From the IMG/VR virus record IMGVR_UViG_3300028888_000086: DNA of 64,000 bases; one strand, written 5' to 3'. Within the stretch, counting starts at the first letter, position 1, and each line of letters opens with the position of its first letter. Positions 2,380-27,758 of this stretch are shown piece after piece. The position numbers and the translations under genes were made by a program. The notes below the pieces were generated by a model, which searched no databases, was not told the origin of the DNA, and saw only the letters and a program-made list of their open reading frames with translations. The DNA is from a virus (taxonomy: Duplodnaviria; Heunggongvirae; Uroviricota; Caudoviricetes).

Positions 2380-3018
2380 TTACATTAATTCTTCATTATA
2401 AACTCTTAATTTTTGTAATCTAAAGTATCTATCTAAACATTTAAATCTTGTTAAAAAATACTGTTTTCTATCTACTTCACCTGATCCACCATAAGAGATA
2501 AATATATCTTCAAAATCTATGTAAGTTTCATTTAATATTAATCTTAAATTTCCATTTTCTAGATATTTTTTAGCAGTACCAGGTTGTAATTCTGCTAATG
2601 ATATATGTGGAGTATAACTATCAAAATCACTACTTACATCATATTTATTTCTTAATCCCTTATTAATATTAAATAATCTTAAATAAAAATCAGTATTCTT
2701 TTTTAGTTTTAATATAATATAATCAGAATCATTTTCAAAACTACTTAATTCAAAAAAATTCAATACTTTAAATGCACATTCTTTTTTACATAAACTTAGT
2801 AATTTATAATAATCTTCATCTCCTAATATTGTTTTTATATCAGGTAATACTTCTTGTTTATTTACTATTTTTCCTTGTGCAAATAGTAAAGTTATATGAG
2901 AGTCCAATTCAACACCCGTATCCTTTAGATCAGTTGTATCGAAAACACAACCAAGATCTACGGGAGTCATTAAATTTACACCTAGCATTAAACAGCTATT
3001 AATTTCTTTATTTTCCAT
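2380..3018 (-). CDS. 2H phosphoesterase superfamily protein (LigT / 2'-5' RNA ligase / cyclic phosphodiesterase-like)
   Basis: Two H-x-T/S-x motifs at the spacing expected for 2H enzymes: DSHITLLFA and YTPHISLAEL; ~210 aa, typical size. Confidence 0.5.
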   Translation of the reverse strand: MENKEINSCLMLGVNLMTPVDLGCVFDTTDLKDTGVELDSHITLLFAQGKIVNKQEVLPDIKTILGDEDYYKLLSLCKKECAFKVLNFFELSSFENDSDYIILKLKKNTDFYLRLFNINKGLRNKYDVSSDFDSYTPHISLAELQPGTAKKYLENGNLRLILNETYIDFEDIFISYGGSGEVDRKQYFLTRFKCLDRYFRLQKLRVYNEELM

Positions 3019-3025
3019 AATCTAG

Positions 3026-4885
3026 TTATTTTTTCGATTTTCCTGCTCTAAATTTATTCTTCATTTTTTCTGTATCTTCTCTCAAACTACTACCACCAAC
3101 TCCATAACCTTCTTCATTAACAACCATAAGACCTAATCCTAATAAGTTGTTTAAGAATTTTTGGTTATCCTCTGTCGTAACTGCTTCTCTTGCTTTTTCT
3201 ATAAACGGTCTTGCATTTCTAGATAACAGAGCAGATAAATCCATCTCACTGATCTTTTGTCCTGTTACTCTATATCTACCTTGACCCATTATAGGTTCAT
3301 CTTTCTTTGGATTAATGTCATGGAAAGCATCGTTACCAAATAAGGATGAAGTTACTTTACTTGAATAAGACGGTATATGATGTAGTTCAATAAGAGTCAT
3401 CCATCCACACTGTAATTTCTTATCAACTGGGACAAATTTACCTGTCATATTTTTAACTACCTTTTCATATTCTTCAGCAGTTAAATTGGCTTTTAATTCA
3501 TCCAGGTCAGTTACAGAAGACTCAGGCATTAAAATTTGACTCTGAGATTCTACATTTAATTCAGTCATCCACTCTTCTACTTTACTAGGTGTGAATTCTG
3601 AATAACAACCTACATTAAAATAGTATACTTCTTCAATAGGTTTAGTATCATGAAGCTTTAAGAATTCATCAACACTTAATTTATCATAACGCCCTTGATA
3701 ATATTTGTTTATAAGTGGCATTATTTTATTTCTTCCTGTTTTTGTTTTCTTATATTCTTCAACCATTTCATATAATCTGTACGCTATCAAACCTAATGAT
3801 TCCTCTAATAATACACCAGCAATTTTTCTATTAATGGTACTATAAGGATTCATAACAACCTCTACCCTATATTGTTTTCCAGTATTTTTATCAACCATTA
3901 TAGGCATCAATTCATCTGGCAAAACAGTAGAAATAACACCTTTACCACCATATCTATTAGTTACTTTAGAACCTACCATAAGAGTTGTTACTTTAATTAA
4001 TCTTATTCTTACAGTATAGACAACTTTATAATCATCTCTATCCATAACAATAGGATCTAAGTTATCAGCAGCCACATACTCGGGGAACTTATCAAAAATT
4101 ATAGATCTATCCTTATTTTTGTTATATTCCTCAATTACAGGCTCAGAAGTAGTAGCAAATTTATAATCTACCTTTACTGACTTCGGAATTTTAGGTTTTT
4201 CATTTTTCTGAATTAATACGTCAGATACATAAGCCTCGTCTATATTATTTGGAACCTTATATCTCTCTTCTGTAGTATATTGTGAGAGATCCTTTTTACC
4301 TTCTTCTCCAAATAATCCACCTAATTTTTCATTAAGGGCTTTATTAATTTCATCTAATCGTCTTGCTGCAAAATATGTAACTAATGAATCTCCAGAATGT
4401 ACCTTAGTTCCAACAGGTATAATCCACTTTAAAGCAGAAGAAGTTTTTATATTTAATCTTATATCAATTAAACTATAGTGAGACATCCTTCTAGCATAAG
4501 ATTCAGATACAACTAAAGCATCTTCATTAACAAGACCAAACATAGCGTGGAATAAAACCAATGTATTTAAACCAGACTTATATGTATCTTCATTTAATCC
4601 AACAGCTCCAGTAATGATATCTCCCTTTTTAACAGTTTGACCTACTTTTACTTTAGGCTCTGTGTAAATACTAATATCATTTAAAGATTGAATTGCTGTT
4701 CTTCTATTAATATCAACAGTTTCACCATTATTGAGTTTAACTGTTACTTTATCAGAATCTATACTTACAACTTTTCCTTCATCATACTCAAATTTTTCAT
4801 TAAGTATGTTATTTTTAAGCTCTTCATCGTGTCCTGTGTCAACTAAAGGACGCTGAGCATTAACTAAAGGGATACTTTGTTTCAT
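3026..4885 (-). CDS. rpoB: RNA polymerase beta subunit, C-terminal exon (exon 2)
   Basis: MKQSIPLVNAQRPLVDTG aligns to bacterial NMQRQAVPL..EAPLVGTG. It also has NRYGGKGVIS (RHGNKGV motif), MNPYSTINRKIAG, and GQGRYRVTGQKISEMDLSAL (GGQRFGEMEVWAL). Confidence 0.9.
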   Translation of the reverse strand: MKQSIPLVNAQRPLVDTGHDEELKNNILNEKFEYDEGKVVSIDSDKVTVKLNNGETVDINRRTAIQSLNDISIYTEPKVKVGQTVKKGDIITGAVGLNEDTYKSGLNTLVLFHAMFGLVNEDALVVSESYARRMSHYSLIDIRLNIKTSSALKWIIPVGTKVHSGDSLVTYFAARRLDEINKALNEKLGGLFGEEGKKDLSQYTTEERYKVPNNIDEAYVSDVLIQKNEKPKIPKSVKVDYKFATTSEPVIEEYNKNKDRSIIFDKFPEYVAADNLDPIVMDRDDYKVVYTVRIRLIKVTTLMVGSKVTNRYGGKGVISTVLPDELMPIMVDKNTGKQYRVEVVMNPYSTINRKIAGVLLEESLGLIAYRLYEMVEEYKKTKTGRNKIMPLINKYYQGRYDKLSVDEFLKLHDTKPIEEVYYFNVGCYSEFTPSKVEEWMTELNVESQSQILMPESSVTDLDELKANLTAEEYEKVVKNMTGKFVPVDKKLQCGWMTLIELHHIPSYSSKVTSSLFGNDAFHDINPKKDEPIMGQGRYRVTGQKISEMDLSALLSRNARPFIEKAREAVTTEDNQKFLNNLLGLGLMVVNEEGYGVGGSSLREDTEKMKNKFRAGKSKK

Positions 4886-4892
4886 TAATATT

Positions 4893-5260
4893 CCACTAGG
4901 TTCGTTATTCCTAGTGCGTTCTCAGATAATAATATCTTGAACTGCTTATACTTTCATATAAGATTAGACTATATCTTCATCCTTAATTACTTAAGGAGCT
5001 TAGCACTTCCACTAGACTTCTAGTGTACTCTCTTTCGAGATAGTCGTTGGGGTTAAATCTATTATACTGAGTTGGTCAATTCTCAGTTTAATTATATTTA
5101 AATTTAACCTGCTGATTGCCCATTGTTTCATATTAACCTTGTTCATCATAAGTGACCAAACCTACTATAGTTAATCTTTAGGGGATTCCAGCATTTCACT
5201 AAGTGTACATAACATATTACTATGTTACTGCTCAATTTTACACAAAGCATAGAGCATCCC
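4893..5260 (-). mobile_element. group I intron (family 1, no ORF) in rpoB-like gene; boundaries +/-10 nt
   Basis: It separates ...RRIPFINSTDSVRISMG (aligns to SLIPFLEHDDANRALMG) from MKQSIPLV. Minus-strand R element CCCCAACGACUAUCUC at ~5036-5053 and S element GGAUGAAGAUAUAGUCUAAUC at ~4957-4978 are in the right order and spacing. The terminal G precedes exon 2. Confidence 0.7.
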
Positions 5261-6567
5261 ATTGAAATACGAACAGAGTCAGTAGAGTTAATAAATGGAA
5301 TACGTCTGGTTGTTGAAGAAAGTCGATAATCAGGGTGTAAGTCTATTAAATCTATTTCTTCTACATTAACCATTTTTCTTTTCATTCTATATTTTACCTC
5401 TACTTGTCCACTTTCATTAGGCTTTAATATTTTCTTATCATAATCAACAAATTCAGATGCACATACTTTAGAATTCAAATAATCAATATAAGGAATAGTT
5501 ATCTTATTAAATTCTTTATCATATACATCAAACATTACACCATCATCAGTAATATGTGTAGATACTGTTAATGAGTTTTGTTTATTTGTATTATTATTAA
5601 TAGGAGTATCAGCTAAGTCAATAAGATCCGTAAAAGTTGTATTAAAAGCCGTAGTTTCAGGTATTTGAATTTTACTACCTAAACTATCCAAATTTATAGC
5701 ATTGATTCCAGGAGGTACTTGTAAATTACTATCTCCTTTTGATTCACTAGTTCCTTTAAAAAATCTAAAAGCTAAAGTTGTAATAGCTGTAACTTCTTCT
5801 TGAATCTTATTATACTTAGTAAAATAACTAGTAATTCTTCTTCTTGCTGATATATAATTACTTCCATTACTAGATCTAAATAAGAAATTCATAAAACTAG
5901 TATATACACTATCTATCTTCTTATCAACTATCAAGTCCTTTAGTCTATCATCCCCGAAAGCTAAACACTCATCAATAAGCTTTGTAGTAATATATTCTGG
6001 CTTATAATCTAAATCTAACTTAATCTGAAATTTCTTTATTTGTATATCAGTAAGTTTTAGTTGTTCTTTTTTATCACCAGTTAGTTTATCAATGTCTTCA
6101 TACTTAATTTCTATAGCTCTTTCTGAAACACTAGGATTTAATTCATTCTGCCTTTTGATTTTTAATACACCTTTTTTGATATCATATTTTCTATTATAGT
6201 CAAAGTTTATATATTGATCTCCTACATCAGACATACGAATCCTACAGTCAAAATCTCCGTCTAATTTATTTGTTGCAATTCTATAAGCTCCTTCGATAAT
6301 AAAAGCTCCATCAATCTCTTTAGGTATTTCAAAAGTTGCATATTTTATCTCAGGGTTATCATTTAATCTATACGAAATTTCTATTAGGTGAGATGCTGTT
6401 AAACTATTTTCTATATAATAAGCAGCTGGTCTTGGTGGTTGTTCTTTAATAGTATAATCTAAATCTACTATACTATATTTCGTATTAAATGAATCCACCT
6501 TATTAAAAAACCTAGTTACTATAGTTTTAATACCATCTCTTTTTAATAATTCATTGAAATTACTCAT
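5146..6567 (-). CDS. rpoB: RNA polymerase beta subunit, N-terminal exon (true exon end ~5257-5261; ORF tail reads into the intron)
   Basis: IDGAFIIEGAYRIA (GxFIINGxERV), LQVPPGINAINLDSLG (ETPEGPNIGLI), RRIPFINSTDSVRISMG. Confidence 0.85.
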   Translation of the reverse strand: MSNFNELLKRDGIKTIVTRFFNKVDSFNTKYSIVDLDYTIKEQPPRPAAYYIENSLTASHLIEISYRLNDNPEIKYATFEIPKEIDGAFIIEGAYRIATNKLDGDFDCRIRMSDVGDQYINFDYNRKYDIKKGVLKIKRQNELNPSVSERAIEIKYEDIDKLTGDKKEQLKLTDIQIKKFQIKLDLDYKPEYITTKLIDECLAFGDDRLKDLIVDKKIDSVYTSFMNFLFRSSNGSNYISARRRITSYFTKYNKIQEEVTAITTLAFRFFKGTSESKGDSNLQVPPGINAINLDSLGSKIQIPETTAFNTTFTDLIDLADTPINNNTNKQNSLTVSTHITDDGVMFDVYDKEFNKITIPYIDYLNSKVCASEFVDYDKKILKPNESGQVEVKYRMKRKMVNVEEIDLIDLHPDYRLSSTTRRIPFINSTDSVRISMGCSMLCVKLSSNIVICYVHLVKCWNPLKINYSRFGHL

Positions 6568-6571
6568 CTTT

Positions 6572-6919
6572 TTATACTAATGATTTTATATTGATTTGTT
6601 TATACTCACAATCAACTGAATTAAAGAACTCCTCTAATTCATTCTTTATTTTATCTTTTATATCCCTAGCAGCAACATACTCACTCATAGGTAATTCTCC
6701 ACTACATCTTATAAATGCACTATAAGATACTAAATAATTATACGTATCTTTTAATTGATATATAACTAACTTTACAGAAAATCTATCATATTTTTCTGGT
6801 ATACTATTCTTTAAAGTTTCGTATAATATATCTCTGGCTTTTGTAATACTTGGATCTAAATTGTCTTCTAATATGTTGTAAGGAATTTCATAAGATAATA
6901 AAATTTCAAAATAATTCAT
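6572..6919 (-). CDS. hypothetical protein between rpoC and rpoB
   Basis: 115-aa ORF in RNAP operon context. Confidence 0.5.
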   Translation of the reverse strand: MNYFEILLSYEIPYNILEDNLDPSITKARDILYETLKNSIPEKYDRFSVKLVIYQLKDTYNYLVSYSAFIRCSGELPMSEYVAARDIKDKIKNELEEFFNSVDCEYKQINIKSLV

Positions 6920-6933
6920 AAACTTTAAAATTC

Positions 6934-7146
6934 TTAAAACTCTGCTGAATCCATAAAGTTATTAGAATTAGCAGATTTTGATTTAACTGTTGCCTTCTTT
7001 TTTATAGCAACTTCTTCTTTCTTGTCAACTGATGGGGTAGTAGAATTAACAACTACTACCTCACCATTCTTTATTGACAATTTAATATTCAAATTTAATT
7101 CATCCTCAAAATTTGGAATCTCTAAACTTAAATTTAAAACTTTCAT
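6934..7146 (-). CDS. hypothetical small protein
   Basis: 70-aa ORF in RNAP operon. Confidence 0.4.
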   Translation of the reverse strand: MKVLNLSLEIPNFEDELNLNIKLSIKNGEVVVVNSTTPSVDKKEEVAIKKKATVKSKSANSNNFMDSAEF

Positions 7147-7147
7147 T

Positions 7148-9244
7148 TTAACCTAATTTGTCGTTTACTAACAAACCTAAAATAACTTCTGACATTACGT
7201 CTCCTTGTAATGAAACCTCTCCTTTTAATGCTTTACTAATTGACTTAGAAGCAAAACCATAAGAAAGAGTTGTATAGAATGAGGGCTTATTTAATACTGC
7301 TGATTGAGTTCCTTGATACTCTATTTCCTCTATTTTTGAAGTTTTAGGATTATAAACAACTCTAGTTAATCCAGCAAATAATAACTCAATAAGCTCTTCT
7401 TGCATTGAGTGTAAATCAGTAATGCCAGTTTTTTGGAATCCATCGTCAGTAACTTCATAAAATTGTTTTCTAAAAATGGTATAAACACTATTAATATCCT
7501 TAACTTTATTAAATCTAGCAGCTATATTATCCATTCTAACAACACCATTACATATTCTATCAAATTTCTTTACTTTAGCACCATCTGGGAAATAATATAT
7601 ACATTTAGGATTATATAAATACTCTTCATTATCTATATAAACATGAATATTACCATTTTTATCCTCATCATATTTTATTATTCCATCATTAATAGCATAA
7701 CAGTCTGATACTAAAACATTTTCTTTCTCAAAATATCTTTGTCCATTACTTCCTCTAGCTCTAAGAAGATTAATTAGGCAGTTTAATTTATAGATAGGAG
7801 ATGTTGTATTATAGGCATAACAAACCTCTTCTCCAGCCTTAAACGTACTTTTACCAACAGTCACTAAATTATCTGGACGTGGATATTTTAATTCTGCTCC
7901 ACGAACTTTAAGGTAAATCCACTTACCCTCTTCTCTAAATGTACAATCTTTAGGGGCTATTAAACAACTAGTTAAATCCAGCTTCCTTTCGTGGCCGCCA
8001 TGTTTTAAGCCAAGAGCTGTTTGAGTTGTACTTTCCATAAGAGAAGTACCAAATGAGAGACCTATAGCAGCACCATCAGTAAAATCAAATTTATTTTTAC
8101 CTAATAAGTCTGGAGTTACTACATTTAAATCTCCTTTATTTTTAGTAACTATAGATCTAACTAGCACTAAATCATCTTCAGAAGGTCTAGCGATCGAGGT
8201 AGTTGGAAATACTTTACCATCTACTGTTGTTCTTCCTAATGCTTTATATCTTGGGATTAATAAACCCTGATTATCTAAATCTTCACCATCTCTATATATA
8301 TAGGAATTTAAACAATAGGAAATTTGACGGTTTAACCATCCGCTCGATGGCACACCGCTAACTTTAATAGATTGTAGTGATCTGTTTTCAATACTATGGT
8401 AGATCATATCTTTTTCATTTAATCCAGTTAATAAAGATCCCCTTGTAATAACAGGTTTTTCATCTATACCAGATATAATGAATTGAGGCATGTTTAGAGC
8501 TGAAATACTAGAAATCTTAACTCTTCCTGCTCTATTTAATTCATCTTTTAAATCGTCTGAAAATTTACCCTCAACTTCTTTTTCATAATCAGCATATTTT
8601 TTAGTTAACATAGCTAATTTTTGTTTGTCAGTAAGTTCTTCAGAGTCAGCTATTCTACAAATTTCTTTATAAGTTTCTGTATCCGTGTCTGCGAATAATG
8701 TTTTGAATGAAAATGTTACAACGCCAGCTTGAGTTACGGCTCTTAATGCCAACTTTTGTAATTCACTTCTTTTTTCTACTCCCTGTTCATCTCTATTTAA
8801 GTAAGAAGATAATTTTACAGCAGCTTTAGCATCCATTCTAGTATATGGATCTTTTAATATATTTAATTTATCTATATCAGCATCCAATATCTTAGAAATC
8901 CTTATTTTACCATAGCATGTTGTTTTACTTTTATAATCTTCACTTCCTATCTTTCCAGTAAAAACAATGGGGGTCCCGTATTTTATCTTTTTTTCAACTT
9001 CAACATCCTTTAGTAAATCCTCGTAGCTTGTATAAAAATATTTTGGATTATCTAAGTCATCGGGATTTTCTAAAACAAACTCGGTTAAAACAGCCAAACC
9101 ATTTAAAGTTTCGTGATTAAATGGAAATATTGGCATGTTATTTTTCTTATAAACATTTACATATCTTGGGGACATTTTATTGTAGGTATCTTCTGCTACA
9201 CTTTCATCAACAAGTTGAATCGAAATTTGATCCCCGTCAAAATC
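7148..9244 (-). CDS. rpoC: RNA polymerase beta' subunit exon 3 (starts at DFDGDQ; the track's TTG start at 9256 is intron sequence)
   Basis: DFDGDQISIQLV is the catalytic NADFDGDQMAVH motif; long C-terminal beta' body. Confidence 0.9.
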   Translation of the reverse strand, partial: DFDGDQISIQLVDESVAEDTYNKMSPRYVNVYKKNNMPIFPFNHETLNGLAVLTEFVLENPDDLDNPKYFYTSYEDLLKDVEVEKKIKYGTPIVFTGKIGSEDYKSKTTCYGKIRISKILDADIDKLNILKDPYTRMDAKAAVKLSSYLNRDEQGVEKRSELQKLALRAVTQAGVVTFSFKTLFADTDTETYKEICRIADSEELTDKQKLAMLTKKYADYEKEVEGKFSDDLKDELNRAGRVKISSISALNMPQFIISGIDEKPVITRGSLLTGLNEKDMIYHSIENRSLQSIKVSGVPSSGWLNRQISYCLNSYIYRDGEDLDNQGLLIPRYKALGRTTVDGKVFPTTSIARPSEDDLVLVRSIVTKNKGDLNVVTPDLLGKNKFDFTDGAAIGLSFGTSLMESTTQTALGLKHGGHERKLDLTSCLIAPKDCTFREEGKWIYLKVRGAELKYPRPDNLVTVGKSTFKAGEEVCYAYNTTSPIYKLNCLINLLRARGSNGQRYFEKENVLVSDCYAINDGIIKYDEDKNGNIHVYIDNEEYLYNPKCIYYFPDGAKVKKFDRICNGVVRMDNIAARFNKVKDINSVYTIFRKQFYEVTDDGFQKTGITDLHSMQEELIELLFAGLTRVVYNPKTSKIEEIEYQGTQSAVLNKPSFYTTLSYGFASKSISKALKGEVSLQGDVMSEVILGLLVNDKLG

Positions 9245-10736
9245 CTTGATATTCAAGCAGTTACGTTACTTCTGCCTCGTTCTCTTATGAACTGCTATAT
9301 GTCTCCATATAGAATAGACTATATCTTCATTATTAAATTTCTTAATAATGTTCCGCTTTTCCACTTACGATTTTAGTGTACTCCTGTAAAAGGATAGTCG
9401 TTGAGGAACAATAAACTTATTAGTCAGATAAGTTTTTTATTTCTTTAAATAATTCATCTAGATCTTCATATACTTTATAAGGATACTTGAAATCACTGTC
9501 TGACTTAGTTTTTATAATATTTGAGTAATAGAATACTCGTAAACCATGTTCTAAACAAAGATTTCGTTTATTATCATCCATTTTAACTCTTTCTTCAAAA
9601 GTATATTTTTTATCAAAAAATTCAGTTGGTTTAAAATGTTGTAATCCTTGACACTCTATAACTGCATTAAAGTCGGGTAAGTAAAAATCTACGTGCTGTT
9701 TTCTTTTATACTTTAACCAATCCCAGGTATATTGTTTTATTATATTAATATTATTATCTTTACAATATAATTCAATATCAACTTCTAAAATAAATCTATC
9801 TCCACAACTAGGACATCCACAATTACTTAAATGTATAGATGGTTGCTGCCAAAACGGTCCATGAGAATTACATATTATCTTAACTGGTGTAGTACAATTT
9901 ACGTACTCAACTTCATCATATCCATAAGTATCTTTATGTATTAATTTTGCGCGACGTATAAATTCTTCAGTATTAATATTAACTCCACCATTACACTCTG
10001 AACACCCATGTCCATATAAATGATCATGTGGTCTTTGAGTAAATTCTTTTTTACACCTATTACAAATCAATTTAACTGGTGTATTGATATTTACATAATT
10101 TACTTCACTGTAATCATATTTATCTTCGCCATGTACTTTTTTAGCTGCTTCTATAAAACTTTCTGTTGTGTATTTTTTATATGGACTTGGATTACATTCT
10201 TTACATCCACATCCCTGTAAAATATCAACCGGCTTAATTTCAAAATACCCATGTATATCACAATTTAGTATAACAGGCGTACTACTATTAATATAATTAA
10301 CTTTATTATATCCGTATCTATCTCCATGAATCTCTCTAGCCTTTTCTATAAACTGTTCCTGTGTATATTTTACTCCACCTTTACAGTTAGGACATCCTTG
10401 TCCACAGAGATGATTGTGTGCAGTCTGAATAAATTCATTTCTGCACTTATTACAAATTATAATAACTTTATCTTTACTTGATGTATAATTTACTTTGCTA
10501 TAATCATATTTATTTTCACCATGTACTTTTTTAGATCTTTCTATAAATTCTTCTGTTGTATATTTTTTCATTATAATTTTAGTTTATATAATTTATTTAT
10601 ATTGTTCCTGCTGATTTTCTCTATTTTATGAATTTTTAGGGTAGGTGACTAAATCCTACATTAACCTCCTATCATAAACCTAGCGAGAGTTTCCAGCATT
10701 TAACGGAATTTTAAAACACCAATTTTAAAATATTTT
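9245..10736 (-). mobile_element. group I intron B of rpoC (family 1), ~1.49 kb, carrying a homing-endonuclease ORF in a peripheral loop just upstream of P7
   Basis: R UUCCUCAACGACUAUCC (~9393-9409) and S GAAGAUAUAGUCUAUUC (~9311-9330) lie downstream of the ORF stop. The intron ends ...AUCAAG before GAU UUU GAC. The 5' exon ends in U (GCU). Confidence 0.65.
9420..10571 (-). CDS. intron-encoded homing endonuclease-like protein: 4 tandem Zn-ribbon repeats plus C-terminal Vsr/PD-(D/E)xK-like nuclease domain
   Basis: The repeat YT.E.FIE...K.HG..YDYS.VNY....P..I.C..HG.F.Q.P..HL.G.GCP.C occurs 4 times. The C-terminus has HVDFYLPDFNAVIECQGLQHF (DFYLP..N.AIE..G.QH). Confidence 0.75.
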   Translation of the reverse strand: MKKYTTEEFIERSKKVHGENKYDYSKVNYTSSKDKVIIICNKCRNEFIQTAHNHLCGQGCPNCKGGVKYTQEQFIEKAREIHGDRYGYNKVNYINSSTPVILNCDIHGYFEIKPVDILQGCGCKECNPSPYKKYTTESFIEAAKKVHGEDKYDYSEVNYVNINTPVKLICNRCKKEFTQRPHDHLYGHGCSECNGGVNINTEEFIRRAKLIHKDTYGYDEVEYVNCTTPVKIICNSHGPFWQQPSIHLSNCGCPSCGDRFILEVDIELYCKDNNINIIKQYTWDWLKYKRKQHVDFYLPDFNAVIECQGLQHFKPTEFFDKKYTFEERVKMDDNKRNLCLEHGLRVFYYSNIIKTKSDSDFKYPYKVYEDLDELFKEIKNLSD

Positions 10737-10814
10737 AGCGTTTAATGGACTACATATGGAGATTGGGAATCTAAGTACATAATCACCATCTCCAGGTTCA
10801 TTTAACCTAACTTT
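10737..10814 (-). CDS. rpoC: rpoC mini-exon 2 (78 nt), encoding KVRLNEPGDGDYVLRFPISICSPLNA
   Basis: It encodes exactly the ~26 aa missing between ...RPPTLH (exon 1) and DFDGD (exon 3). It aligns to bacterial [29 protein letters not shown]. It is preceded by G (10815) and ends in U. Confidence 0.7.
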
Positions 10815-11120
10815 CATACAAAACATTGAATATTCCGAAAAATACTTATATTTTCATATAAGACTAGACTATATCATCATCTATATTTCAAGATGGACTG
10901 CGCTTCAAAAATAGGAATTTCACCTATTTCTTACTCCATATAGGATAGTCGTTACACCTTTTTTGATTTATAATTTCAAAACTTGGCTCGGGATTGCCAT
11001 ATTATATTTCTATAACTTAGGTTTCCCCGATAGCAGAGATTTTATTTTCTCCACACCTAGCATTTACTAGTTCACAGTCTTTGCATTATAAGATCGCTCT
11101 TATAAGTCACAAATTTCTTT
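10815..11120 (-). mobile_element. group I intron A of rpoC (family 1, no ORF, ~306 nt)
   Basis: R GGUGUAACGACUAUCC (~10943-10958) and S GAUGAUGAUAUAGUCUAG (~10867-10884) are present. The 5' exon ends CAU (U). The intron ends UGUAUG. Confidence 0.7.
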
Positions 11121-12281
11121 ATGAAGTGTAGGAGGCCTATTAATAATTACTAGTTGTTTTTCTGCAAATTCCTTAAATAATTTTTGAGTTTCAGGATTAA
11201 ATGCTTCTTCTCTAGTAGCTTTCATAGCCTCTTTGTATGTAAAGTTAAGCTCTTTCTGTAGATGTTCAATAAATTTTTCTCTAAGTAATTCATAAGCAAT
11301 AGATACAGGAATACCAATTTCATCAATCTTCAAATCTGTTGCTGGAACAATTGGACATCTTGCAGAGTTTTTTGTTCTTACTCCAAATAATTCACGGGCT
11401 AAATTTTCTTTGGAGGTATTTAATAATTCAGTAGCTTCTTTTTTACCTGTATTCAAAAAAGCTCTAAGTAATGCAGTATATCTAACTTTTTCGCCAGGAG
11501 TTTTAAAGCGGCCAATTACTTCTTCATAATTCAGGTCATTACTTTTTTTATCCTGTACACAACAAAGTCTAATAATAATACTGTACCAAACTGACAATTT
11601 ACTAGACCCTTGAGTTTTCTTACCATTTTTATATTCAAAGGTAACGGGTCTCATCATTGCAGGTAATACTAAATAATATCGATTTATAAGTTTTCTGAAT
11701 TCGTTTGCTCTTTCTGGGAAGTGTTTTTCTATAATAGCTAACAGACCTTCATAAGAACATTTAGATTCATCTGTTATAAATTCAGATATTTTTAGTTCTT
11801 TCTTTGTGGGACTATAAGTAAATTGGCAAGTATCAAAAACCTTTATAGTTAATTTCTTTCCACCACGACCAGCATATCCTAAGTTTTTGAAATCATTACC
11901 TTGGAAATCTAGTTTGATAGTACTTTCAGAAAATATATCATCAAATAATTCTTTAAATATATCAAATCTCAAGTCATTTAAGTAATAAAAAGGTAATTCT
12001 ATTCTTGCAAATCTTCTCATACCTTCCTCTCTTGTAAAAACTCTAGCTCCACAAAAAGGGCAAGGTTCATGAGAGGCTCTTTTAATTTTACCACAAATAC
12101 AACGATCTTCATAGATTGACCCGAAAGCATCAACATCATAAACTCCTCCAGGTATGGGTTCAGGATAGTTGAATTTCAGGTTAAAGTCTCTATGATCAAA
12201 TAAAACTCTATCTCGACCATCACTTCTTGTATAGTCTAATATAGCTTCATCTGTTAATAATTCTAGTGATACTTTTGACAT
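11121..12281 (-). CDS. rpoC: RNA polymerase beta' subunit exon 1 (through ...INRPPTLH)
   Basis: N-terminal Zn finger CICGKIKRASHEPCPFCG, RFARIELPFYY (RMGHIEL), INRPPTLHK (LNRAPTLHR). The annotated tail EICDL* is intron read-through. Confidence 0.9.
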
Positions 12282-12297
12282 AATTTACTTTTTTTAA

Positions 12298-13383
12298 TCA
12301 TTCTGTATCTTTCCAAATAATTTTACTAGCTAATTCTGAGTCTATAGGATTTGCTTTAGACCACTCTTTCAGCATTTGTTTAACATCGGCTATAGCATCA
12401 GACCTAGTTTTATCTTTTAATTTTTCATATATACCAGGTTCAACAGCTACTTCAATTAAATCAGAAATAACATCTTGAGTTATAGCTTTAGAAGTATTCG
12501 TAAACTTGGCACGATACTCACGATAAATAACTACATCATCATAAGTTAAATTAAGGTCAGCAAATTCAGAAGAGGTTCTAATTTCAGCTGGTTCTTTATT
12601 AAACCAAGATAACTGTAATTTTCTAACACGGGCAGCAACTTGAGGTCTTCCAGCATCTTCATATCTCTGAGCTAATTCTTCTACTATATCATATTTAACA
12701 GACATAATTTTATTTAAAGCTCTATTAATTTGATTAGCATAAACCTCAGGCATTGTTGGACAGTCTATAATTAAATCATATAAACCGGATGAGAATAAAT
12801 AAATAATCAGAGCGGGTAATTGTCTCTGTTTTCTCTTTCTAGATATTGTAGAATCCTTTGATAAATCTCGGGAAGCCAAATAATCAACAAACCTAGCCAT
12901 ATATTCTCTAGCATCATCAGTAAATTTCTTATTAAATGATCCAGATTCATCTCCGAGTAAATTCTCATCCACATCCTCTCCTCTTAAAGGTGTATCAGGA
13001 GCATAAACAGAATTAACCATACGAGCATGACCTTGTCTTTGTAATAGATCTTTAACAATAAAATTAGCTGTATTAGTACTAGAATGTTTAGGATTAGCTA
13101 AAACAATAGAAGTTAAAACATCCTCTAAAGCTGTATCTGGTGATTTCTTTCCTGCTGTAAGAATATCATCATAAGCCGTACATAACCAAATTTCATCTTG
13201 AGTCATTTTACCAGCATATTGACTAGCATCTACATGTTCATTTTTAGATTCACTTTCTTCCTCTGATTCATTAGAGTCTCCTTCAGTCTCATCACCAACA
13301 TCATCGTCTGGCATTGGGAAAAAATAACTATCCTCATTTACATCAGACTCATCATCATTAAAATAATATTGATTATCTTCCAT
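12298..13383 (-). CDS. acidic hypothetical protein, first gene of the rpoC-rpoB operon (possible RNAP-associated factor)
   Basis: 361 aa with a D/E-rich N-terminus. GC is clearly higher than in flanking DNA. It is preceded by a minus-oriented promoter motif at ~13471-13495. Confidence 0.6.
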   Translation of the reverse strand: MEDNQYYFNDDESDVNEDSYFFPMPDDDVGDETEGDSNESEEESESKNEHVDASQYAGKMTQDEIWLCTAYDDILTAGKKSPDTALEDVLTSIVLANPKHSSTNTANFIVKDLLQRQGHARMVNSVYAPDTPLRGEDVDENLLGDESGSFNKKFTDDAREYMARFVDYLASRDLSKDSTISRKRKQRQLPALIIYLFSSGLYDLIIDCPTMPEVYANQINRALNKIMSVKYDIVEELAQRYEDAGRPQVAARVRKLQLSWFNKEPAEIRTSSEFADLNLTYDDVVIYREYRAKFTNTSKAITQDVISDLIEVAVEPGIYEKLKDKTRSDAIADVKQMLKEWSKANPIDSELASKIIWKDTE

Positions 13384-13544: not shown

Positions 13545-13560
13545 AAATCCTTATATATGA
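13545..13560 (+). promoter_or_regulatory. conserved promoter-like motif (AAATCCTTATATATGA) driving the tRNA cluster
   Basis: It is a family member of the AAAGCCTTATATATGTA motif, and the first tRNA starts 7 nt downstream. Confidence 0.55.
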
Positions 13561-13566: not shown

Positions 13567-13654
13567 GGAGAGGTGCCGAAGTTGGTCATAACGGCCTAGA
13601 CTTGAAATCTTGTGTGTCTTTATAGACCCGTGGGTTCGAATCCCACCCTCTCCG
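13567..13654 (+). tRNA. tRNA-Ser(UGA), class II with long variable arm
   Basis: Acceptor GGAGAGG/CCTCTCC, D-arm GCCG...CGGC, anticodon loop CTTGAAA, T-arm GTGGGTTCGAATCCCAC. Confidence 0.8.
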
Positions 13655-13678
13655 CTTTCAAAATAAAATAACAAAAAT

Positions 13679-14088
13679 GGCGGCATGTTGGAATTGGTAG
13701 ACAAGGCGGTCTTTTTGCCAATTAGACAAACAAAAGAGAGTGCATAGGTAAGAAATTCCTATGTAGAACCTCTCAAATTCGGTGGAAGTCTCTATGAGAA
13801 AATACCGAGCTAAATCAGATTTAATTCTGTAAATGTGTAGAGAGCAGAAGGGAGGTACCTAAGTTGAGAAAAGCATTGAGTATGACGGTAGTGCGGAGGT
13901 GTCAGCCTCAGGATTGGTTCGACTCCAAAATGCTGAGTTGCAACTTTTTCAATATGGTAATGGTGTGCTCCAGACCACAACAACACAATTAGTCGCCAAG
14001 CGTCTGAGAAAGTTGGCTATGGTAACATAGTGTGGTAGGAAAAACCGCTCCCAATTATGGGGTCCCAGTTCGACTCTGGGTGTCGCTA
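13679..14088 (+). tRNA. tRNA-Leu(UAA) interrupted by a 326-nt group I intron between U34 and A35 (exons 13679-13713 and 14040-14088)
   Basis: 5' exon GGCGGCA TG TTG GAATTGGTAGA CAA G GCGGT CUU. 3' exon AAAA ACCGC, long variable arm TCCCAATTATGGGG, T-arm CCCAGTTCGACTCTGGG, acceptor TGTCGCT (two G.U pairs with GGCGGCA). The intron ends ...GUAGG. Confidence 0.75.
13714..14039 (+). mobile_element. group I intron (family 2) in the tRNA-Leu(UAA) anticodon loop
   Basis: Canonical cyanobacterial/plastid trnL insertion site. The 5' exon ends in U and the intron ends in G. It has internal P7-like pairing UUCGACUCC / UUAGUCGCC, and shares AAUACCGAGCUAA with the AAA+ ATPase intron. Confidence 0.65.
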
Positions 14089-14136
14089 CAAAAGAGGTGA
14101 AAAATCCTCTTTTATTTTTCCGTCTATAAATCCTTA

Positions 14137-14154
14137 AAAGCCTTATATATGTAA
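14137..14154 (+). promoter_or_regulatory. promoter-like motif AAAAGCCTTATATATGTA preceding a ~140-nt structured non-coding region
   Basis: Motif family member. It sits immediately after the hairpin AGAGGTGAAAAATCCTCT plus T-run. Confidence 0.5.
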
Positions 14155-14335
14155 TGGAGATCGAGCTAATAGTTAATTCCGATTTTCCGGGGTAAAGACG
14201 CACCCGGCAACAGAAGTGGTCAAATTTATGAAAAGGGAAAGCCTGAGAATGCACCATTACGTTAGACTGTGCAAAAAACTTGGGCTTTCCTAATTTTTTT
14301 TCAAGACTTTTATGTCTTTTTATTTTTTTTCTTGA
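14155..14335 (+). ncRNA. candidate small RNA (promoter to double terminator)
   Basis: No ORF. Stems CCGGGG...CCCGG, GGAAAGCC...GGGCUUUCC plus U8, then AAGACUUUUAUGUCUU plus U-run. Promoter upstream and next gene's promoter downstream. Confidence 0.4.
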
Positions 14336-19737: not shown

Positions 19738-19763
19738 AGGATTAAAAAAGAATGGGAGATGTT

Positions 19764-22739: not shown

Positions 22740-22816
22740 AATTTTTTTAATTTTAATTGTTAATACTTGAAAATAAAAACAAGTAAATAGGATTTTATTA
22801 CCTATTTACTTCTCTA

Positions 22817-22833
22817 CATATATAAGGCTTTTA
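22817..22833 (-). promoter_or_regulatory. promoter motif (minus orientation) for the 991-aa helicase gene, followed by 5'-UTR hairpin GTAAATAGG...CCTATTTAC
   Basis: ACATATATAAGGCTTTT; divergent with the plus-strand motif at 22887-22904. Confidence 0.55.
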
Positions 22834-22923
22834 AGAATTATTAAATGGAATTTCTGAAATGCTTAAAACACGCTTAAAACGGTTAAAAATTCTTATATAT
22901 GTAAATATTAAATTTTATTAATT

Positions 22924-23313: not shown

Positions 23314-23417
23314 AAACTAAGGGATAGAAGTTAAGTTTCTATCTCTTTTTATTTTCTTAAAAACCTTATTTATGATAAATTAGAATAAAAAAATAAATAT
23401 AAATATAAATAAATAAT

Positions 23418-24856
23418 ATGAAAGAAGAAAGGGCTAGAGAAATATATAAAAAGGTTAAGGATTTTGCTTGGAATAATACAGATAAACAAGAAGAATTTTG
23501 GAGAACTTTATTAAATGAAACAACTCCAGAAGATAGAAAAGATATCTATATTTTCCTAGATAATGATTTTACGGAATTTTCATTTATTAGTGAAACACCT
23601 AATGCACCTGATGATACCTGTAGATGTTTAATTGATGAAAAAGATGGAGTTAAAAATTACTGCTTCTATCTAAGTCCTGGAATCTACTGGCAGAACGTCC
23701 ATCACTTATTAAATGCATTGGGATTTACAGCAGAACCAGCATGAAATTCGATGATTTAAAGATTGGAGATAATCTAGTATGTCTAAGAATAAAAGATGAT
23801 ATAGCTATTCATTTTAATCTAAAAATTACTGCAAAAGCTCTCTATAGTTTTTCTGTTATTTCTGATACGTTAGATACATATACTTTTATTGTACCAACGG
23901 ATAAAAAAGTAAACGGAAAAATTGTATTGTTAGATAATGGCAGTGATAATTTTGATGAGAGTATTCGAGAGTATTTATTTGAAACCCTCGAAGATTGTAA
24001 GAAATTCGCTATTAACTATTATAAACAGAGAATAAAAAACTATGAAGAAACTATTCAAAGAGTTAAAACCTGGTGATACTATATTTTTAGTAGGAAGCCC
24101 AGATTTTATAGCACATGAAGATTTAGTAGAGAATTTTAGTCTTTTTAAAATCAAAGATATTATTCCTACGTTAGATGGAAAAAGAAATCAAATCATATGT
24201 CTAAGTGGAGAATTTTATAGTATACTTACAGATATAAAAGAAAAAAAGATTTCTTATTTTACTACTTTAAAAGATGTGGATATTACAGGTCATCAAGCTT
24301 CAATACGAATTGATGAGTGGTCTGAAAAATTTACAAAAACTATATCAGAGTATAGAACTTTCTTATGTTTTCCTGATGTTAATTCTGGACTTGATTTCCT
24401 AGAAAAAAGATTCAAGAAATATTTAGAAGATATAAAAGAAAGTAAAGAAATAAACAAAAAAATTATAGAAAAGTGAAAATACTATTACTTATGATATTAT
24501 GTCATATTATTGATGATTTTGTACTTCAGCCAATATGTCTAAGTAAATTAAAACAAAAAGAATGGTGGGAACGTAATATTGGAACTAAAGAATATGGAAT
24601 GCCACTTATGTATAAATGCGATTATAAAGCTGCTCTAATTATACACTCACTAAGTTGGTCAATAATGATAAACTTACCTTTGTTTTTATTTACTTCAGAT
24701 TTAGCTATTGGATTATCTGTATTTATTAATTGTATTATTCATTATATTATAGACGATTTAAAAGCTAATAAAAAGAAAATAAACCTTCAAATTGACCAAA
24801 GTATACATATTGTACAAATTTTCTTGACATATATTATATTATCACTTCTAAAATAA
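23418..24856 (+). CDS. operon of four translationally coupled hypothetical proteins (23418-23744, 23741-24076, 24042-24476, 24473-24856; the last is a multi-TM membrane protein)
   Basis: ATGA overlaps join the ORFs. 24473-24856 has four hydrophobic segments. Confidence 0.55.
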
Positions 24857-24904
24857 ATAAAAAAGAAAGATAGATTAATTTCTATCTTCTTTTATTTTTA
24901 TATC

Positions 24905-25756
24905 TTAGTTAGAGAACAGTTTATTATATTTTTCTAATGTCTCATCTTCTGCTTCTTTACCCCATCTTGAATAAATAACTACACCCCTTGAAGTTAATGA
25001 GCAAATAAATGGGTCTTCTGGTCGTCTGTAGAATCTTATACTTCTAGGAGCATCTTTCATTTCATTTCTAGGAGCAGCTATAAACATTTTACTATCCACT
25101 TTATGAACAGTTACGTCACAGATTTTTCTCACTTCTTTTTCTGGTAAATAAGATCTTAAATAATTTTTTATATAAGATTGAGAGCTCTCTCTTATTAATA
25201 TAAATGGTAGAGTTTTTAAAAACTTTTTAGTAGACAGTCTTAAATCTCCTGAAGAACGAAACGTATGTATCTCTGTTATTCTATATGTATTAAGATTATA
25301 ATATTCTCTCAACATTAATGGTGATGGACTTATAAAGTTATGACTGAGATTTTCTATCTTATCTTTGGCATTTTTTATCTCTTGTAGATTTTTATCTGGT
25401 ACAACTCCAAGATAATCAGAAAATTCTCTACAAATAAGATTATACTTTTTAATTAAATAAATAAAGTCTTCTATTTTAATTAATATTGTATTTTCTCCAA
25501 AATAATTCTTTAATTCTTTTATAAGCAATAATGACTCTAAAGCGGTTTTAATGGTATTATTAAAATTCTCACCTTTTTTAATTATTTCTGTTCTATCTCT
25601 TAGTATCTTAGAATTAAAAAATCCCAATTCACCCATTAACTCTAAACTATTATTTTTTGATGAATTAAGTTTAGAATTTAATTTACTAAGAGCTGTTAAA
25701 TCATTTACAAAATTAACTGTTTTTTCTTCTAGTTCTTTTTCTAATGTACTAAACAT
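24905..25756 (-). CDS. hypothetical protein
   Basis: 283-aa ORF; a convergent terminator hairpin lies at 24863-24888. Confidence 0.55.
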   Translation of the reverse strand: MFSTLEKELEEKTVNFVNDLTALSKLNSKLNSSKNNSLELMGELGFFNSKILRDRTEIIKKGENFNNTIKTALESLLLIKELKNYFGENTILIKIEDFIYLIKKYNLICREFSDYLGVVPDKNLQEIKNAKDKIENLSHNFISPSPLMLREYYNLNTYRITEIHTFRSSGDLRLSTKKFLKTLPFILIRESSQSYIKNYLRSYLPEKEVRKICDVTVHKVDSKMFIAAPRNEMKDAPRSIRFYRRPEDPFICSLTSRGVVIYSRWGKEAEDETLEKYNKLFSN

Positions 25757-25843
25757 AATATTTTATTTTTAATAATTTACATATATTAGGTTTTGAAATA
25801 CTTATAATTGAATATAAAATAAACAACTTAATCGTCAATAGTT

Positions 25844-26416
25844 ATGTTTAATAGTAAATTAAAAAATGCTACACTAGATGAAATGATGGTAGCTATTAAA
25901 AGAAATGTTAAACCTTCAAAATGTATAGAAAATTTTGAAGGATTGTTGAGAGAAATTAAAGATGAACGAATTATTAACATTTTTATTAAAGAAATGTATG
26001 GATTCTTATCTGATTTATTTAATTTATTTCATGAGATAGATAAAATAAGCAGTAAAGAAATAAAAGCAAAGATGTTAACAAAAGAGTTCATTAAGCCAGA
26101 AAATTACTTTAAAAACTCTAAAAAGTTAGCAGATAAAATAATGAGATACAGAGCAGCTTATGAGTTTTTAAATAAAAGGTTTACAACATTTACTAGAACA
26201 ACAAATAAAACTCCAGTAAATATTAAGTATAAAGAAGCAGTGGAGTTAGTAAATGATAAAACTTGGGATAAAACAGAAGATGAAATAAAAGAATTAGCAA
26301 GAAAAGTAATGCTTCTGTATAATCATATTCCGGCTATATATAAAGCTCTCATACAAACAAAAAGAAGAAAATTAGGACTTGATTGTAATTCTAAAAAGTT
26401 TAAAGAACAGGTATAG
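25844..26416 (+). CDS. hypothetical protein
   Basis: 190-aa ORF; terminator at 26439-26468. Confidence 0.55.
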   Translation: MFNSKLKNATLDEMMVAIKRNVKPSKCIENFEGLLREIKDERIINIFIKEMYGFLSDLFNLFHEIDKISSKEIKAKMLTKEFIKPENYFKNSKKLADKIMRYRAAYEFLNKRFTTFTRTTNKTPVNIKYKEAVELVNDKTWDKTEDEIKELARKVMLLYNHIPAIYKALIQTKRRKLGLDCNSKKFKEQV

Positions 26417-26475
26417 TCCATAATTATCTTCAAAAAAAAGAAGAATAGAAGTTAAATCTACTCTTCTATTATTTT

Positions 26476-27018
26476 TTATATACTAGCTATTATAGTATAA
26501 TCATCAGAAAATTCTATAATTAAATTTTGTAAACACTCATTTAAAGACTTAGTAAAATTTAATAAGGTTTCATATGTTCCCCAACCATTAGGAGAGTTAA
26601 ATTTTTCTAGATCCGTTTTATTATCTTTTAAATATTTATAACCAATTTCTATACCATCAATATATTTTTGATCTACATATTTAAAATTTAATACATCAGG
26701 ATGCCATAAATAATCATACAATGTCTTATCATTTATTGGAACATTTCTAGCCATTTGACCTAGATTATGTGTTATATTACCACTCCAAATAGTATTAGTC
26801 TCATATTCTACTTCATTAATATTACTTAAGTCTATATTAGGAAAATAAGCTTTAACCTCATCTATTGTTTTTAATTCTACAACTTCTCCATCCTTCCTTA
26901 CATATACGCCGGTTCCTTTATGTTTTACTGGTTTAGTTGAAATAATATCTAAATCTAAACTCATATATTTAATTGATTTATAAACTTTTCTTTTCCATGC
27001 TCTGTATTTAATTCCCAT
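26476..27018 (-). CDS. hypothetical protein (likely starts at the internal Met MSLDLDI, ~26961)
   Basis: ORF downstream of the Thg1-like gene. Confidence 0.5.
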   Translation of the reverse strand: MGIKYRAWKRKVYKSIKYMSLDLDIISTKPVKHKGTGVYVRKDGEVVELKTIDEVKAYFPNIDLSNINEVEYETNTIWSGNITHNLGQMARNVPINDKTLYDYLWHPDVLNFKYVDQKYIDGIEIGYKYLKDNKTDLEKFNSPNGWGTYETLLNFTKSLNECLQNLIIEFSDDYTIIASI

Positions 27019-27758
27019 CCATCATGAGATTTCCATACACTTCTTAAATAATCACCATATTCTTCTGAGTGATGCATTTCTTCTTCTTTCCATATAAATC
27101 TACCAAACTTTTTACCAGCATCATAATCATTCCAATCTATATTATATTTAGACTTTAATAATTCTATCTGCTCATCTGAATTTAAATTTAGTAGATCATT
27201 GTGAGATATGTAAGTTTGAGCTGCCTGTTGTTTGCTATTCTTTATACAGTCTAATTGTCTATATAAAAACCAAGCATAAACATCATTATCATTATCTACA
27301 TTAAAAGCTTTACAGTCAAACTGAAAAGGCTTATATTTACTAAATAAATCATTAACTCCTTCAATAATATCTCTAAAACTGGCACATTCACAGATAGATA
27401 AATTATGCTTTATCATCTCTAAGTTAAAAAATCCAGTTGCAATAGAAGAAATTAAACTATTTAACTTACATAACCTATATTCAAAAAATGGCTGATTTAT
27501 TTCATTTCTAGAGTCAATAAAGAAAGAAATCTCATCACTTTGAACATAAGCAAATTTACAACATTGAATTTCTTTACTTGTATATTCCGCTGTTTTATTC
27601 ATTAAGTCTATAAAGAAATCATCGAATGGCCTCTTAAATTTCTTCTTTATTCTCTTACTAAAACTCCTACCATCTATCATACAAATTAATGGTAAATCCT
27701 TGTTTAATTTATAATTAACTCTCTCTCTATACTCATTAAACTTTTCTTCTAATGTCAT
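26961..27758 (-). CDS. Thg1-like protein (tRNA-His guanylyltransferase / 3'-5' nucleotidyltransferase family)
   Basis: ICMIDGRSFSK matches Thg1 VVRIDGKKFHEF, and AYVQSDEISFF matches AFGESDEYSFIL. The size fits. Confidence 0.6.
   Translation of the reverse strand: MTLEEKFNEYRERVNYKLNKDLPLICMIDGRSFSKRIKKKFKRPFDDFFIDLMNKTAEYTSKEIQCCKFAYVQSDEISFFIDSRNEINQPFFEYRLCKLNSLISSIATGFFNLEMIKHNLSICECASFRDIIEGVNDLFSKYKPFQFDCKAFNVDNDNDVYAWFLYRQLDCIKNSKQQAAQTYISHNDLLNLNSDEQIELLKSKYNIDWNDYDAGKKFGRFIWKEEEMHHSEEYGDYLRSVWKSHDGWELNTEHGKEKFINQLNI

Follow-up and report, generated by a model that had tools for sequence, protein, structure and literature searches.

Does a huge phage that encodes a 2H phosphoesterase, a Thg1-like polymerase and six tRNA genes carry one RNA-repair system, or several separate genes? 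The question is raised by a 64-kb stretch of DNA from the IMG/VR virus record IMGVR_UViG_3300028888_000086 (Caudoviricetes), which we call the window. A first-pass annotation, made from the letters of this DNA alone, had gathered these genes into a toolkit that counters tRNA-cleaving host defences or matures the phage's own tRNAs. We find instead that the parts are separate, scattered genes of kinds already predicted, not one linked system. Jumbo phages have been proposed by Iyer and colleagues to combine tRNAs, RNA ligases, 2H phosphoesterases and CCA-adding enzymes against attack on translation, with Thg1 sporadic in the predicted repertoire (PMC7824862). The toolkit idea restates that prediction for a new genome, and a role in RNA or tRNA maintenance, which matches it, is plausible.

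The explanation that we consider best, with a probability of roughly 55%, is that the window holds three separate RNA-metabolism features: a 2H protein resembling LigT and cyclic phosphodiesterases (CPDases), a Thg1-like protein (TLP) of bacterial type, and supplementary tRNAs, one of which has a predicted self-splicing intron. The data themselves show which folds and families are present, that the catalytic motifs are conserved, how the genes are ordered and how far this order is kept in relatives, and that tRNA-Leu carries an intron.

If this explanation holds, the 2H protein would hydrolyse 2',3'-cyclic phosphate esters, i.e., either the RNA 2',3'-cyclic phosphate ends (RNA>p) that metal-independent host RNases produce or the ADP-ribose 1''-2'' cyclic phosphate (Appr>p) made by the RNA 2'-phosphotransferase Tpt1. 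It would work with a NUDIX-Tpt1 gene pair in NAD-dependent RNA end healing and 2'-phosphate removal. The TLP would add Watson-Crick-templated nucleotides to 5'-shortened tRNAs, including G-1 opposite C73 where a tRNA-His gene does not encode it. The six phage tRNAs would supplement or replace host tRNAs, the Ser/Leu pair at least being placed behind a promoter-like motif, and the tRNA-Leu(UAA) intron would be one of many mobile introns of this genome.

Arrangement of the parts

The genes in question are as follows (open reading frames, ORFs, are given from first to last base).

2380-3018, minus strand: 2H phosphoesterase-fold protein, 212 amino acids (aa), identified by HxT/S motifs, AlphaFold2 model and structure search
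13567-13655, plus strand: tRNA-Ser(UGA), found by ARAGORN and Rfam (50.5 bits), with the promoter-like motif CCTTATATATG at 13549-13559
13679-14088, plus strand: tRNA-Leu(UAA) with a group I intron, found by Rfam and, once spliced, as an ARAGORN cloverleaf
26961-27758, minus strand: Thg1-like protein (TLP type) of the 3'-5' nucleotidyltransferase family, 265 aa (PF04446, PHROG 4717, PDB 4KGK)
61774-62172, minus strand: four-tRNA cluster Tyr(GUA), Gly(UCC), Ser(GCU) and Pro(UGG), found by ARAGORN and Rfam (55-66 bits)

These parts are thus scattered: 2H is at approximately 2.4 kb, the Ser/Leu tRNAs are at 13.6 kb, the TLP gene is at 27 kb and the cluster of four tRNAs is at 62 kb. They are 10-35 kb apart, do not all share a strand and belong to separate transcription units. 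ARAGORN and Rfam report five tRNAs on the unspliced window, and the intron-bearing tRNA-Leu is the sixth, so the earlier count of six tRNA genes, one with an intron, was right. Both of the tRNA clusters that the first-pass annotation described are real, but the four-tRNA cluster lies outside the 2380-27758 span to which it had assigned them.

In the known healing-and-sealing systems (T4 Pnkp/Rnl1, RtcB, Pnkp/Hen1 and Trl1/Tpt1), a ligase and end-healing enzymes are encoded together, and this is not what the window contains. The approximately 50 window ORFs scanned gave no match to an RNA ligase or polynucleotide kinase family; many of them match nothing, so a divergent ligase is possible.

Other viral genomes tell a similar story. 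Among 80 viral TLP loci, a tRNA gene lies within 2 kb in seven and within 10 kb in 26, on which basis we rejected a physical linkage of Thg1 to tRNA genes. The relative that we call L004 has no tRNA genes beside its RNA polymerase (RNAP) operon. One locus of the 77 with a 2H gene of this family does have the parts truly adjacent: in L057 (1-4600), RNAP beta, 2H, tRNA-Leu(UAA), tRNA-Arg(CCU), a Thg1-like gene and tRNA-Arg(UCU) lie within 3 kb, which shows that the parts can travel together. The repair-system claim therefore stands in its component identities, and a maintenance role is plausible, with some support from the nearby Tpt1 described below; as a claim of one system it is not borne out, given the dispersal, the lack of a ligase among the ORFs scanned and the rarity of Thg1-tRNA proximity.

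The 2H phosphoesterase

The ORF at 2380-3018 contains both of the motifs from which it was first recognised, HITLLF (H41-x-T43) and PHISLAEL (H138-x-S140), each with a hydrophobic residue after the T/S. All 34 homologues keep H41, T43, P137 and H138, and each has Ser or Thr at position 140. An AlphaFold2 model built on the family alignment (predicted local distance difference test score, pLDDT, 90.3; predicted template-modelling score, pTM, 0.87) confirms the proposed 2H fold, as does structure search: the modelled beta-strands 41-47 and 138-144 each begin with an HxT/S motif, and the predicted structure has the two-lobed alpha+beta fold common to LigT, CPDase and Usb1. When a viral structure library is searched with the model, phage cyclic phosphodiesterase/2'-5' RNA ligase proteins rank first (E 1e-8 to 1e-6; template-modelling score by target, TMt, at most 0.69). 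Acb1 ranks below these LigT/CPDase-like proteins (E 1e-4 and weaker; TMt approximately 0.5 and the corresponding score by query, TMq, approximately 0.4).

Sequence profiles place the protein less readily. It has no Pfam or NCBIfam match at threshold and no Pfam match at E ≤ 0.01, it falls below the gathering scores of the LigT/2'-5' RNA ligase families in Pfam, and its profile gives spurious matches only among PDB sequences. It matches PHROG 755 ('RNA ligase') partially (1.3e-4), and it scores 15.9 bits against Acb1 (PF23474), for which the cut-off is 27. Among the 34 family members, sub-threshold matches to PF13563 (2_5_RNA_ligase2) occur in 27 (best 2.4e-5) and to PF02834 in five. We take the protein for a true 2H enzyme that resembles LigT and CPDases in predicted shape but comes from a divergent subfamily. 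The family has at least 276 metagenomic proteins. Its fold leaves three options for the substrate: RNA>p/Appr>p healing, which we favour, Acb1-like degradation of a signal, or a transcription-linked role.

The 2H gene and the RNA polymerase operon

The 2H gene is the last of an operon encoding a multisubunit RNAP, the other members of which are listed here.

12298-13383, minus strand: 361-aa protein of the RNAP module
within 6572-13383, minus strand: RNAP beta' gene, exons 11118-12272, 10737-10841 and 7154-9244, with two introns (Pfam RNA_pol_Rpb1_2)
6934-7146 and 6572-6919, minus strand: two small ORFs of the RNAP module
3026-6567, minus strand: RNAP beta gene, two exons, approximately 5245-6567 and 3026-4888 (Pfam RNA_pol_Rpb2_6, 1.6e-15)

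In the window, the 2H gene starts 7 nucleotides (nt) past the beta stop codon, and a terminator-like hairpin with a T-run lies 3' of its own stop. The order of the module (a protein of approximately 365 aa, beta', two small ORFs, beta, 2H) is the same in the window and in L001 and L004, relatives at 56% and 83% identity, respectively, that share the RNAP-2H module. Across 77 2H loci (72 from IMG/VR plus five from ENA and Logan, representing approximately 9-11 lineages at 70-90% identity), beta is directly upstream of 2H on the same strand in every one, with a gap of 1-10 nt in 33. The downstream flank is not conserved across loci, leaving beta as the only invariant neighbour. The 2H gene is probably translationally coupled to beta.

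This linkage holds at the level of the clade only. We rejected a deeper conservation on the evidence of LR756502, a 642-kb phage with a 28%-identical 2H homologue, in which no RNAP beta gene was found within 12 kb. The attachment of a divergent 2H subfamily to an RNAP operon is nevertheless the one point in this analysis that could turn out to be new.

A probable NUDIX-Tpt1 neighbourhood

At its left edge, the window contains the start of one further gene.

1-25, minus strand: start of a NUDIX hydrolase gene, first eight codons MKKLTCAV (MKKTTCAI in L004)

The gene runs off the edge, and its continuation can be judged from L004, the closest relative (beta 94% and 2H 83% identical). There, the NUDIX gene (Pfam 7.8e-11) is followed by a gene for Tpt1/KptA, the RNA 2'-phosphotransferase (Pfam 7e-41; PHROG 3e-59), and the pair lies 3.4-4.4 kb beyond the 2H gene. 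By comparison with L004, the window's genome very probably has the same NUDIX-Tpt1 pair just past the left edge.

By established biochemistry (see also PMC7824862), a 2H CPDase first hydrolyses the 2',3'-cyclic phosphate of a broken RNA; once a ligase has joined the ends, a 2'-phosphate remains. Tpt1 removes this phosphate, and its by-product, Appr>p, is in turn cleared by 2H CPDases. A neighbourhood of 2H, NUDIX and Tpt1 genes fits this Tpt1-CPDase chemistry, yet neither a ligase nor a kinase was found.

The Thg1-like protein

The ORF at 26961-27758 was first picked out by its Thg1 signature segments, IDGRSF (D29) and SDEISF (D75/E76), both of which are present, and its membership of the family is borne out by a match to Pfam PF04446 (Thg1) that spans the palm domain (residues 9-153) and, at 78.6 bits (E 5.3e-22), exceeds the 29.2-bit cut-off. 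It also matches PHROG 4717 over residues 2-246 (E 1.6e-46); NCBIfam gave no match. The best PDB match is the TLP of Bacillus thuringiensis (BtTLP, 4KGK), at 2.5e-21 with the single sequence and 1.2e-41 with a profile, while profile scores for eukaryotic Thg1 run from 1.3e-15 to 8.9e-12 and the archaeal TLP 5AXK scores 2.7e-11. The 27 homologues all carry D29, S74, D75 and E76, and alignments pair these with their counterparts in BtTLP and in human Thg1, the reference metal-binding carboxylates being D29, D76 and E77 of the human enzyme.

Eukaryotic Thg1 has a HINNLYN motif, the His of which stacks on anticodon base G36 of tRNA-His (PMC6471195). This motif is absent from the phage family, in which the consensus DCI[KR]NSKQQ, with no His, aligns with DChINNLYN of Candida Thg1. 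Because BtTLP is the best match and HINNLYN is replaced, we class the protein on its sequence as a TLP of bacterial type, closer to the characterised BtTLP than to eukaryotic Thg1.

Such genes are common in viruses. The nearest relatives of the phage TLP are in Lak and other huge phages (47% identity), and Thg1-like genes occur in 123 GenBank phage records, with the Lak megaphages closest and many of the genes already annotated as tRNA-His guanylyltransferase. Viral TLP genes are present at no fewer than 571 IMG/VR loci, i.e., at least that number.

In vitro, TLPs extend 5'-truncated tRNAs by Watson-Crick-templated addition whatever the tRNA's identity, a repair that does not depend on the anticodon (PMC3061083, PMC6471195). 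They also add G-1 opposite C73 (PMC6471195). Five tRNA-His genes lie within 10 kb of a viral Thg1 gene; three encode G-1 and two, in other viral loci, do not.

L141, 19177-19249: tRNA-His with T at -1 and discriminator C73
L139, 3510-3585: tRNA-His with T at -1, A73 and an encoded CCA

As judged from their genes, these two tRNAs would need G-1 to be added after transcription, which is just where a TLP would be called for.

The tRNA genes

The acceptor stems of all six window tRNAs are fully paired, and on this ground we rejected a need for tRNA 5'-editing. The tRNA-Leu gene is followed by a terminator-like hairpin (14090-14113).

Just beyond the Ser/Leu pair, a promoter-like motif at 14141 on the plus strand is followed by approximately 150 nt without an ORF and then by T-rich runs (14141-14335); this interval may be a small non-coding RNA gene. 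A transfer-messenger RNA at 14108-14225 was considered and rejected, the alpha_tmRNA Rfam match being sub-threshold (26.6 bits) and ARAGORN reporting none.

A calcineurin-like metallophosphoesterase gene (62738-63469, minus strand; Pfam 9.5e-13) precedes the four-tRNA cluster by two genes and shares its strand. L001 also has a Metallophos gene, approximately 6 kb from its 2H gene. The window protein could be an RNA end-healing phosphatase, in a family that is very broad.

The tRNA-Leu intron and other group I introns

The tRNA-Leu intron is 326 nt long (13714-14039) and lies between U34 and A35. A local Rfam scan of 1.1 kb gives it 32.5 bits (E 3e-6) with the group I model RF00028, short of that model's gathering score of 50. 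U is the last base of the 5' exon and G that of the intron, removal of the intron leaves a sequence that ARAGORN recognises as tRNA-Leu(taa) with a full cloverleaf, and the intron region folds better than shuffled sequence (z = -5.1). A 52-nt core of the intron is also found inside annotated collar/head-to-tail protein genes of Pectobacterium phages. By these features, we predict the intron to be a self-splicing group I intron.

Introns of this group splice themselves and rejoin the exons by an ordinary 3'-5' bond, and therefore the tRNA-Leu intron gives no case for 2H, Tpt1 or TLP. The possibility that it needs protein splicing enzymes was rejected on its assignment to group I. The first-pass annotation had counted the intron towards a need for tRNA maturation; that argument falls, the intron being one of at least six of its type in the window (one in tRNA-Leu, one in beta, two in beta' and two in the family A DNA polymerase gene, PolA) and calling for neither enzyme. 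The others, with the genes that they concern, are these.

approximately 4889-5244, minus strand: beta intron, group I without an ORF, splitting the gene (Rfam match 4945-5254, RF00028 74.7 bits)
10845-11101, minus strand: first beta' intron, group I (69.4 bits)
approximately 9245-10736, minus strand: second beta' intron, approximately 1.5 kb, carrying the ORF 9420-10571
43163-47186, plus strand: PolA in three ORFs, with two group I introns
45637-45865 (48 bits) and 46572-46794 (52.7 bits): the PolA group I introns, from Rfam
47228-48850, minus strand: large free-standing homing/HNH endonuclease gene, adjoining PolA

Exon blocks of beta and beta' were located by tblastn, and the uninterrupted beta of L001 as query gives two beta blocks; relatives such as L001 have uninterrupted RNAP genes. 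The beta' gene includes a mini-exon of only 35 codons (10737-10841), and the ORF inside its second intron (9420-10571) encodes a treble-clef zinc-finger endonuclease-like protein. The PolA gene appears to be split by its two introns.

Other features of the window

The window is AT-rich (approximately 27% G+C), and its source is an uncultivated huge phage that uses the standard genetic code. An alternative code was considered, Lak-like phages being known to recode TAG, and rejected: the standard code gives ORFs of at least 100 aa over 59 of the 64 kb. The gene set is that of a huge phage (multisubunit RNAP, family A DNA polymerase, helicases, homing endonucleases), with many ORFs that match no family. 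No close nucleotide relative was found among 50,697 GenBank phage records, the sole match being a 271-nt endonuclease fragment, and the beta protein is only 26-27% identical to those of Staphylococcus jumbo phages. Homologues of the 2H and Thg1-like proteins were found on metagenomic viral contigs of 200-450 kb.

A motif scan for the 11-mer CCTTATATATG, allowing up to one mismatch, gives 28 sites in the window, against four expected.

13549, 14141, 14339, 28009, 39234, 39684, 50950 and 51422: example sites of CCTTATATATG from the motif scan

The sites that were checked (e.g., 13549, 14141, 14339 and 28009) are intergenic and oriented towards the downstream gene. The motif stands upstream of tRNA-Ser and of many ORFs and is absent ahead of the RNAP/2H operon and the Thg1-like gene; its placement suggests a promoter that serves one transcription class of the phage. 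Two minus-strand copies, at 39234 and 39684, lie in an ORF-free interval of approximately 1.1 kb (39123-40203), which has no Rfam family match and may encode non-coding RNAs.

Some of the remaining genes are unusual phage cargo, namely an abortive-infection phage-resistance-like (AIPR) protein (49179-50885, plus strand; Pfam 2.2e-23) and a 720-aa SPFH/Band 7 protein (36619-38781, plus strand) whose tail is long and charged. A GMP reductase/IMP dehydrogenase-like protein (34864-35865, minus strand) scores at best 128 bits against an NCBIfam equivalog cut-off of 344, and we read it as a divergent auxiliary nucleotide-metabolism gene.

Weighing the explanations

Several points weigh against three separate features with the activities proposed above. 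For the 2H protein, Tpt1 is close to the 2H gene in only two of the 77 loci, and the Tpt1 gene of this genome is one that we infer rather than see. Weak matches to Acb1 occur in 28 of the 34 family members (best 6.3e-7) and are as good as those to LigT-type models, and the family is acidic (median isoelectric point, pI, 4.75), which is atypical of an RNA-binding enzyme. As in the window, scans of the 20 kb that surround 2H in relatives (genes were called in L001 and L004) turned up neither an RNA ligase nor a polynucleotide kinase, so that a complete healing-and-sealing pathway would be hypothetical. For the TLP, the window has no tRNA-His and its six acceptor stems are intact, leaving no evident substrate here. 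It is substrates, cooperation between the parts and any anti-defence role that we infer.

The rival that stays closest to the first-pass annotation makes the 2H protein, the Thg1-like protein and the tRNAs a single counter-defence system that mends or replaces tRNAs cut by host anticodon nucleases. Its component types all appear in the jumbo-phage RNA-repair proposal (PMC7824862), L057 has the parts within 3 kb, L004 has Tpt1 near its 2H gene, and in L158 an RlaP nucleotidyltransferase gene lies approximately 6 kb from Thg1. However, breaks in the anticodon loop require a ligase, which our scans did not find, and a 5'-end polymerase cannot mend cuts at that position. The genes are also widely spaced, the promoter-like motif stands at the Ser/Leu tRNAs and not at 2H or Thg1, a tRNA gene lies within 2 kb of Thg1 in only seven of the 80 loci, and the RNAP operon of L004 has none beside it; in addition, none of the 120 Thg1 clusters listed has its longest contig in common with a 2H cluster on the list, although this is weak evidence. 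We consider a single system unlikely. A narrower proposal is that the Thg1-like enzyme only adds G-1 to a phage tRNA-His encoded elsewhere in the genome, i.e., that it serves maturation and not repair. The tRNA-His genes of L141 (C73) and L139 (A73), which do not encode G-1, favour it, as does the ability of TLPs to extend opposite C73, but the other three of the five tRNA-His genes near viral Thg1 encode G-1, the window has none, and the anticodon-reading HINNLYN is absent, so there is no evident specificity for tRNA-His. We regard this proposal as tentative and on balance somewhat doubtful.

Two further alternatives concern the 2H protein only. It might be an anti-defence phosphodiesterase, unrelated to tRNA, that degrades the second messengers of host immunity as Acb1 and viral 2'-5' phosphodiesterases do; candidate substrates are the cyclic di- and trinucleotides of cyclic-oligonucleotide-based antiphage signalling systems (CBASS), the cyclic oligoadenylates of type III CRISPR, and 2'-5'-linked signals. 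We keep this option because the 2H sequence is as close to Acb1 as to LigT, but judge it improbable: the viral structure library favours LigT/CPDase-like proteins (E 1e-8 versus 1e-4; TMt up to 0.69 versus approximately 0.5), the protein is approximately 60 residues longer than Acb1 and does not match it at the Pfam cut-off, and two features of its setting, the fixed position directly downstream of RNAP beta and the proximity of Tpt1, point to RNA. The operon position itself suggests a transcription-linked role, in which the protein would be an RNAP accessory that processes transcript ends co-transcriptionally, for example as a Usb1-like 3'-trimming enzyme whose products end in a protective 2',3'-cyclic phosphate, or as one that takes such ends off. 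This we think quite unlikely, and its stricter form, in which the protein is a dedicated accessory of this clade's multisubunit RNAP, made in step with beta and acting on transcript ends, seems very doubtful. We know of no 2H enzyme that acts on transcript ends as an RNA polymerase accessory; if this one did, it might, for example, make or remove 2',3'-cyclic phosphate termini on nascent or finished phage transcripts.

Returning to the explanation that we prefer, three separate RNA-metabolism features, the window is a concrete huge-phage case of the RNA-repair repertoire predicted for jumbo phages, with the parts as dispersed accessory genes and not as a cassette. The 2H subfamily at the end of the RNAP operon is a candidate for end healing, clearance of the Tpt1 by-product, destruction of immune signals or transcript processing. 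Viral TLPs are common, and some co-resident phage tRNA-His genes without an encoded G-1 point to a natural candidate substrate for them.

Comparison with known systems

A close parallel for the 2H and Tpt1 genes is the fungal/plant-type pathway, in which the CPDase domain of Trl1 acts together with Tpt1. It differs from the phage arrangement in that no ligase or kinase domain was found in the phage, and the phage Tpt1 lies outside the window itself. The phage proteins are also separate and not in one operon, which sets them apart both from Trl1/Tpt1 and from yeast Cpd1 and plant CPDase, the enzymes that clear Appr>p.

Compared with the LigT branch (E. coli LigT, Pyrococcus PH0099, D. radiodurans CPDase and phage 'LigT-like' proteins), the 2H protein is approximately 30-40 aa longer, has a C-terminal helix (residues 194-211 in the model), is acidic, and falls below all of the Pfam LigT thresholds. 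Its gene is fixed at the 3' end of an RNAP operon, a context not described for LigT. Acb1 of phages T4 and FBB1 is shorter by approximately 60 aa, has another genomic context and gives Pfam matches below the cut-off; structurally, the 2H protein is nearer to LigT-like phage proteins.

The Thg1-like protein resembles BtTLP (PDB 4KGK/4KGM) in its profile match (residues 4-229, E 1e-41), in keeping the catalytic D29 and S74-D75-E76, and in having a TLP-type D-x-x-K-N-S segment in place of the eukaryotic HINNLYN. It is approximately 20 aa longer than BtTLP, with a 17-residue insertion between the halves and a C-terminal extension.

Finally, the tRNA-Leu intron is like the group I intron of cyanobacterial and plastid tRNA-Leu(UAA) in its host gene, in its site between U34 and A35, and in having a 5' exon that ends in U and an intron that ends in G. 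It differs in residing in a phage genome, in scoring 32.5 bits on a generic Rfam model and in sharing its 52-nt core with Pectobacterium phages. A tRNA-Leu(UAA) intron at the classic 34/35 site, among at least six group I introns in one phage window, bears on how such introns spread.

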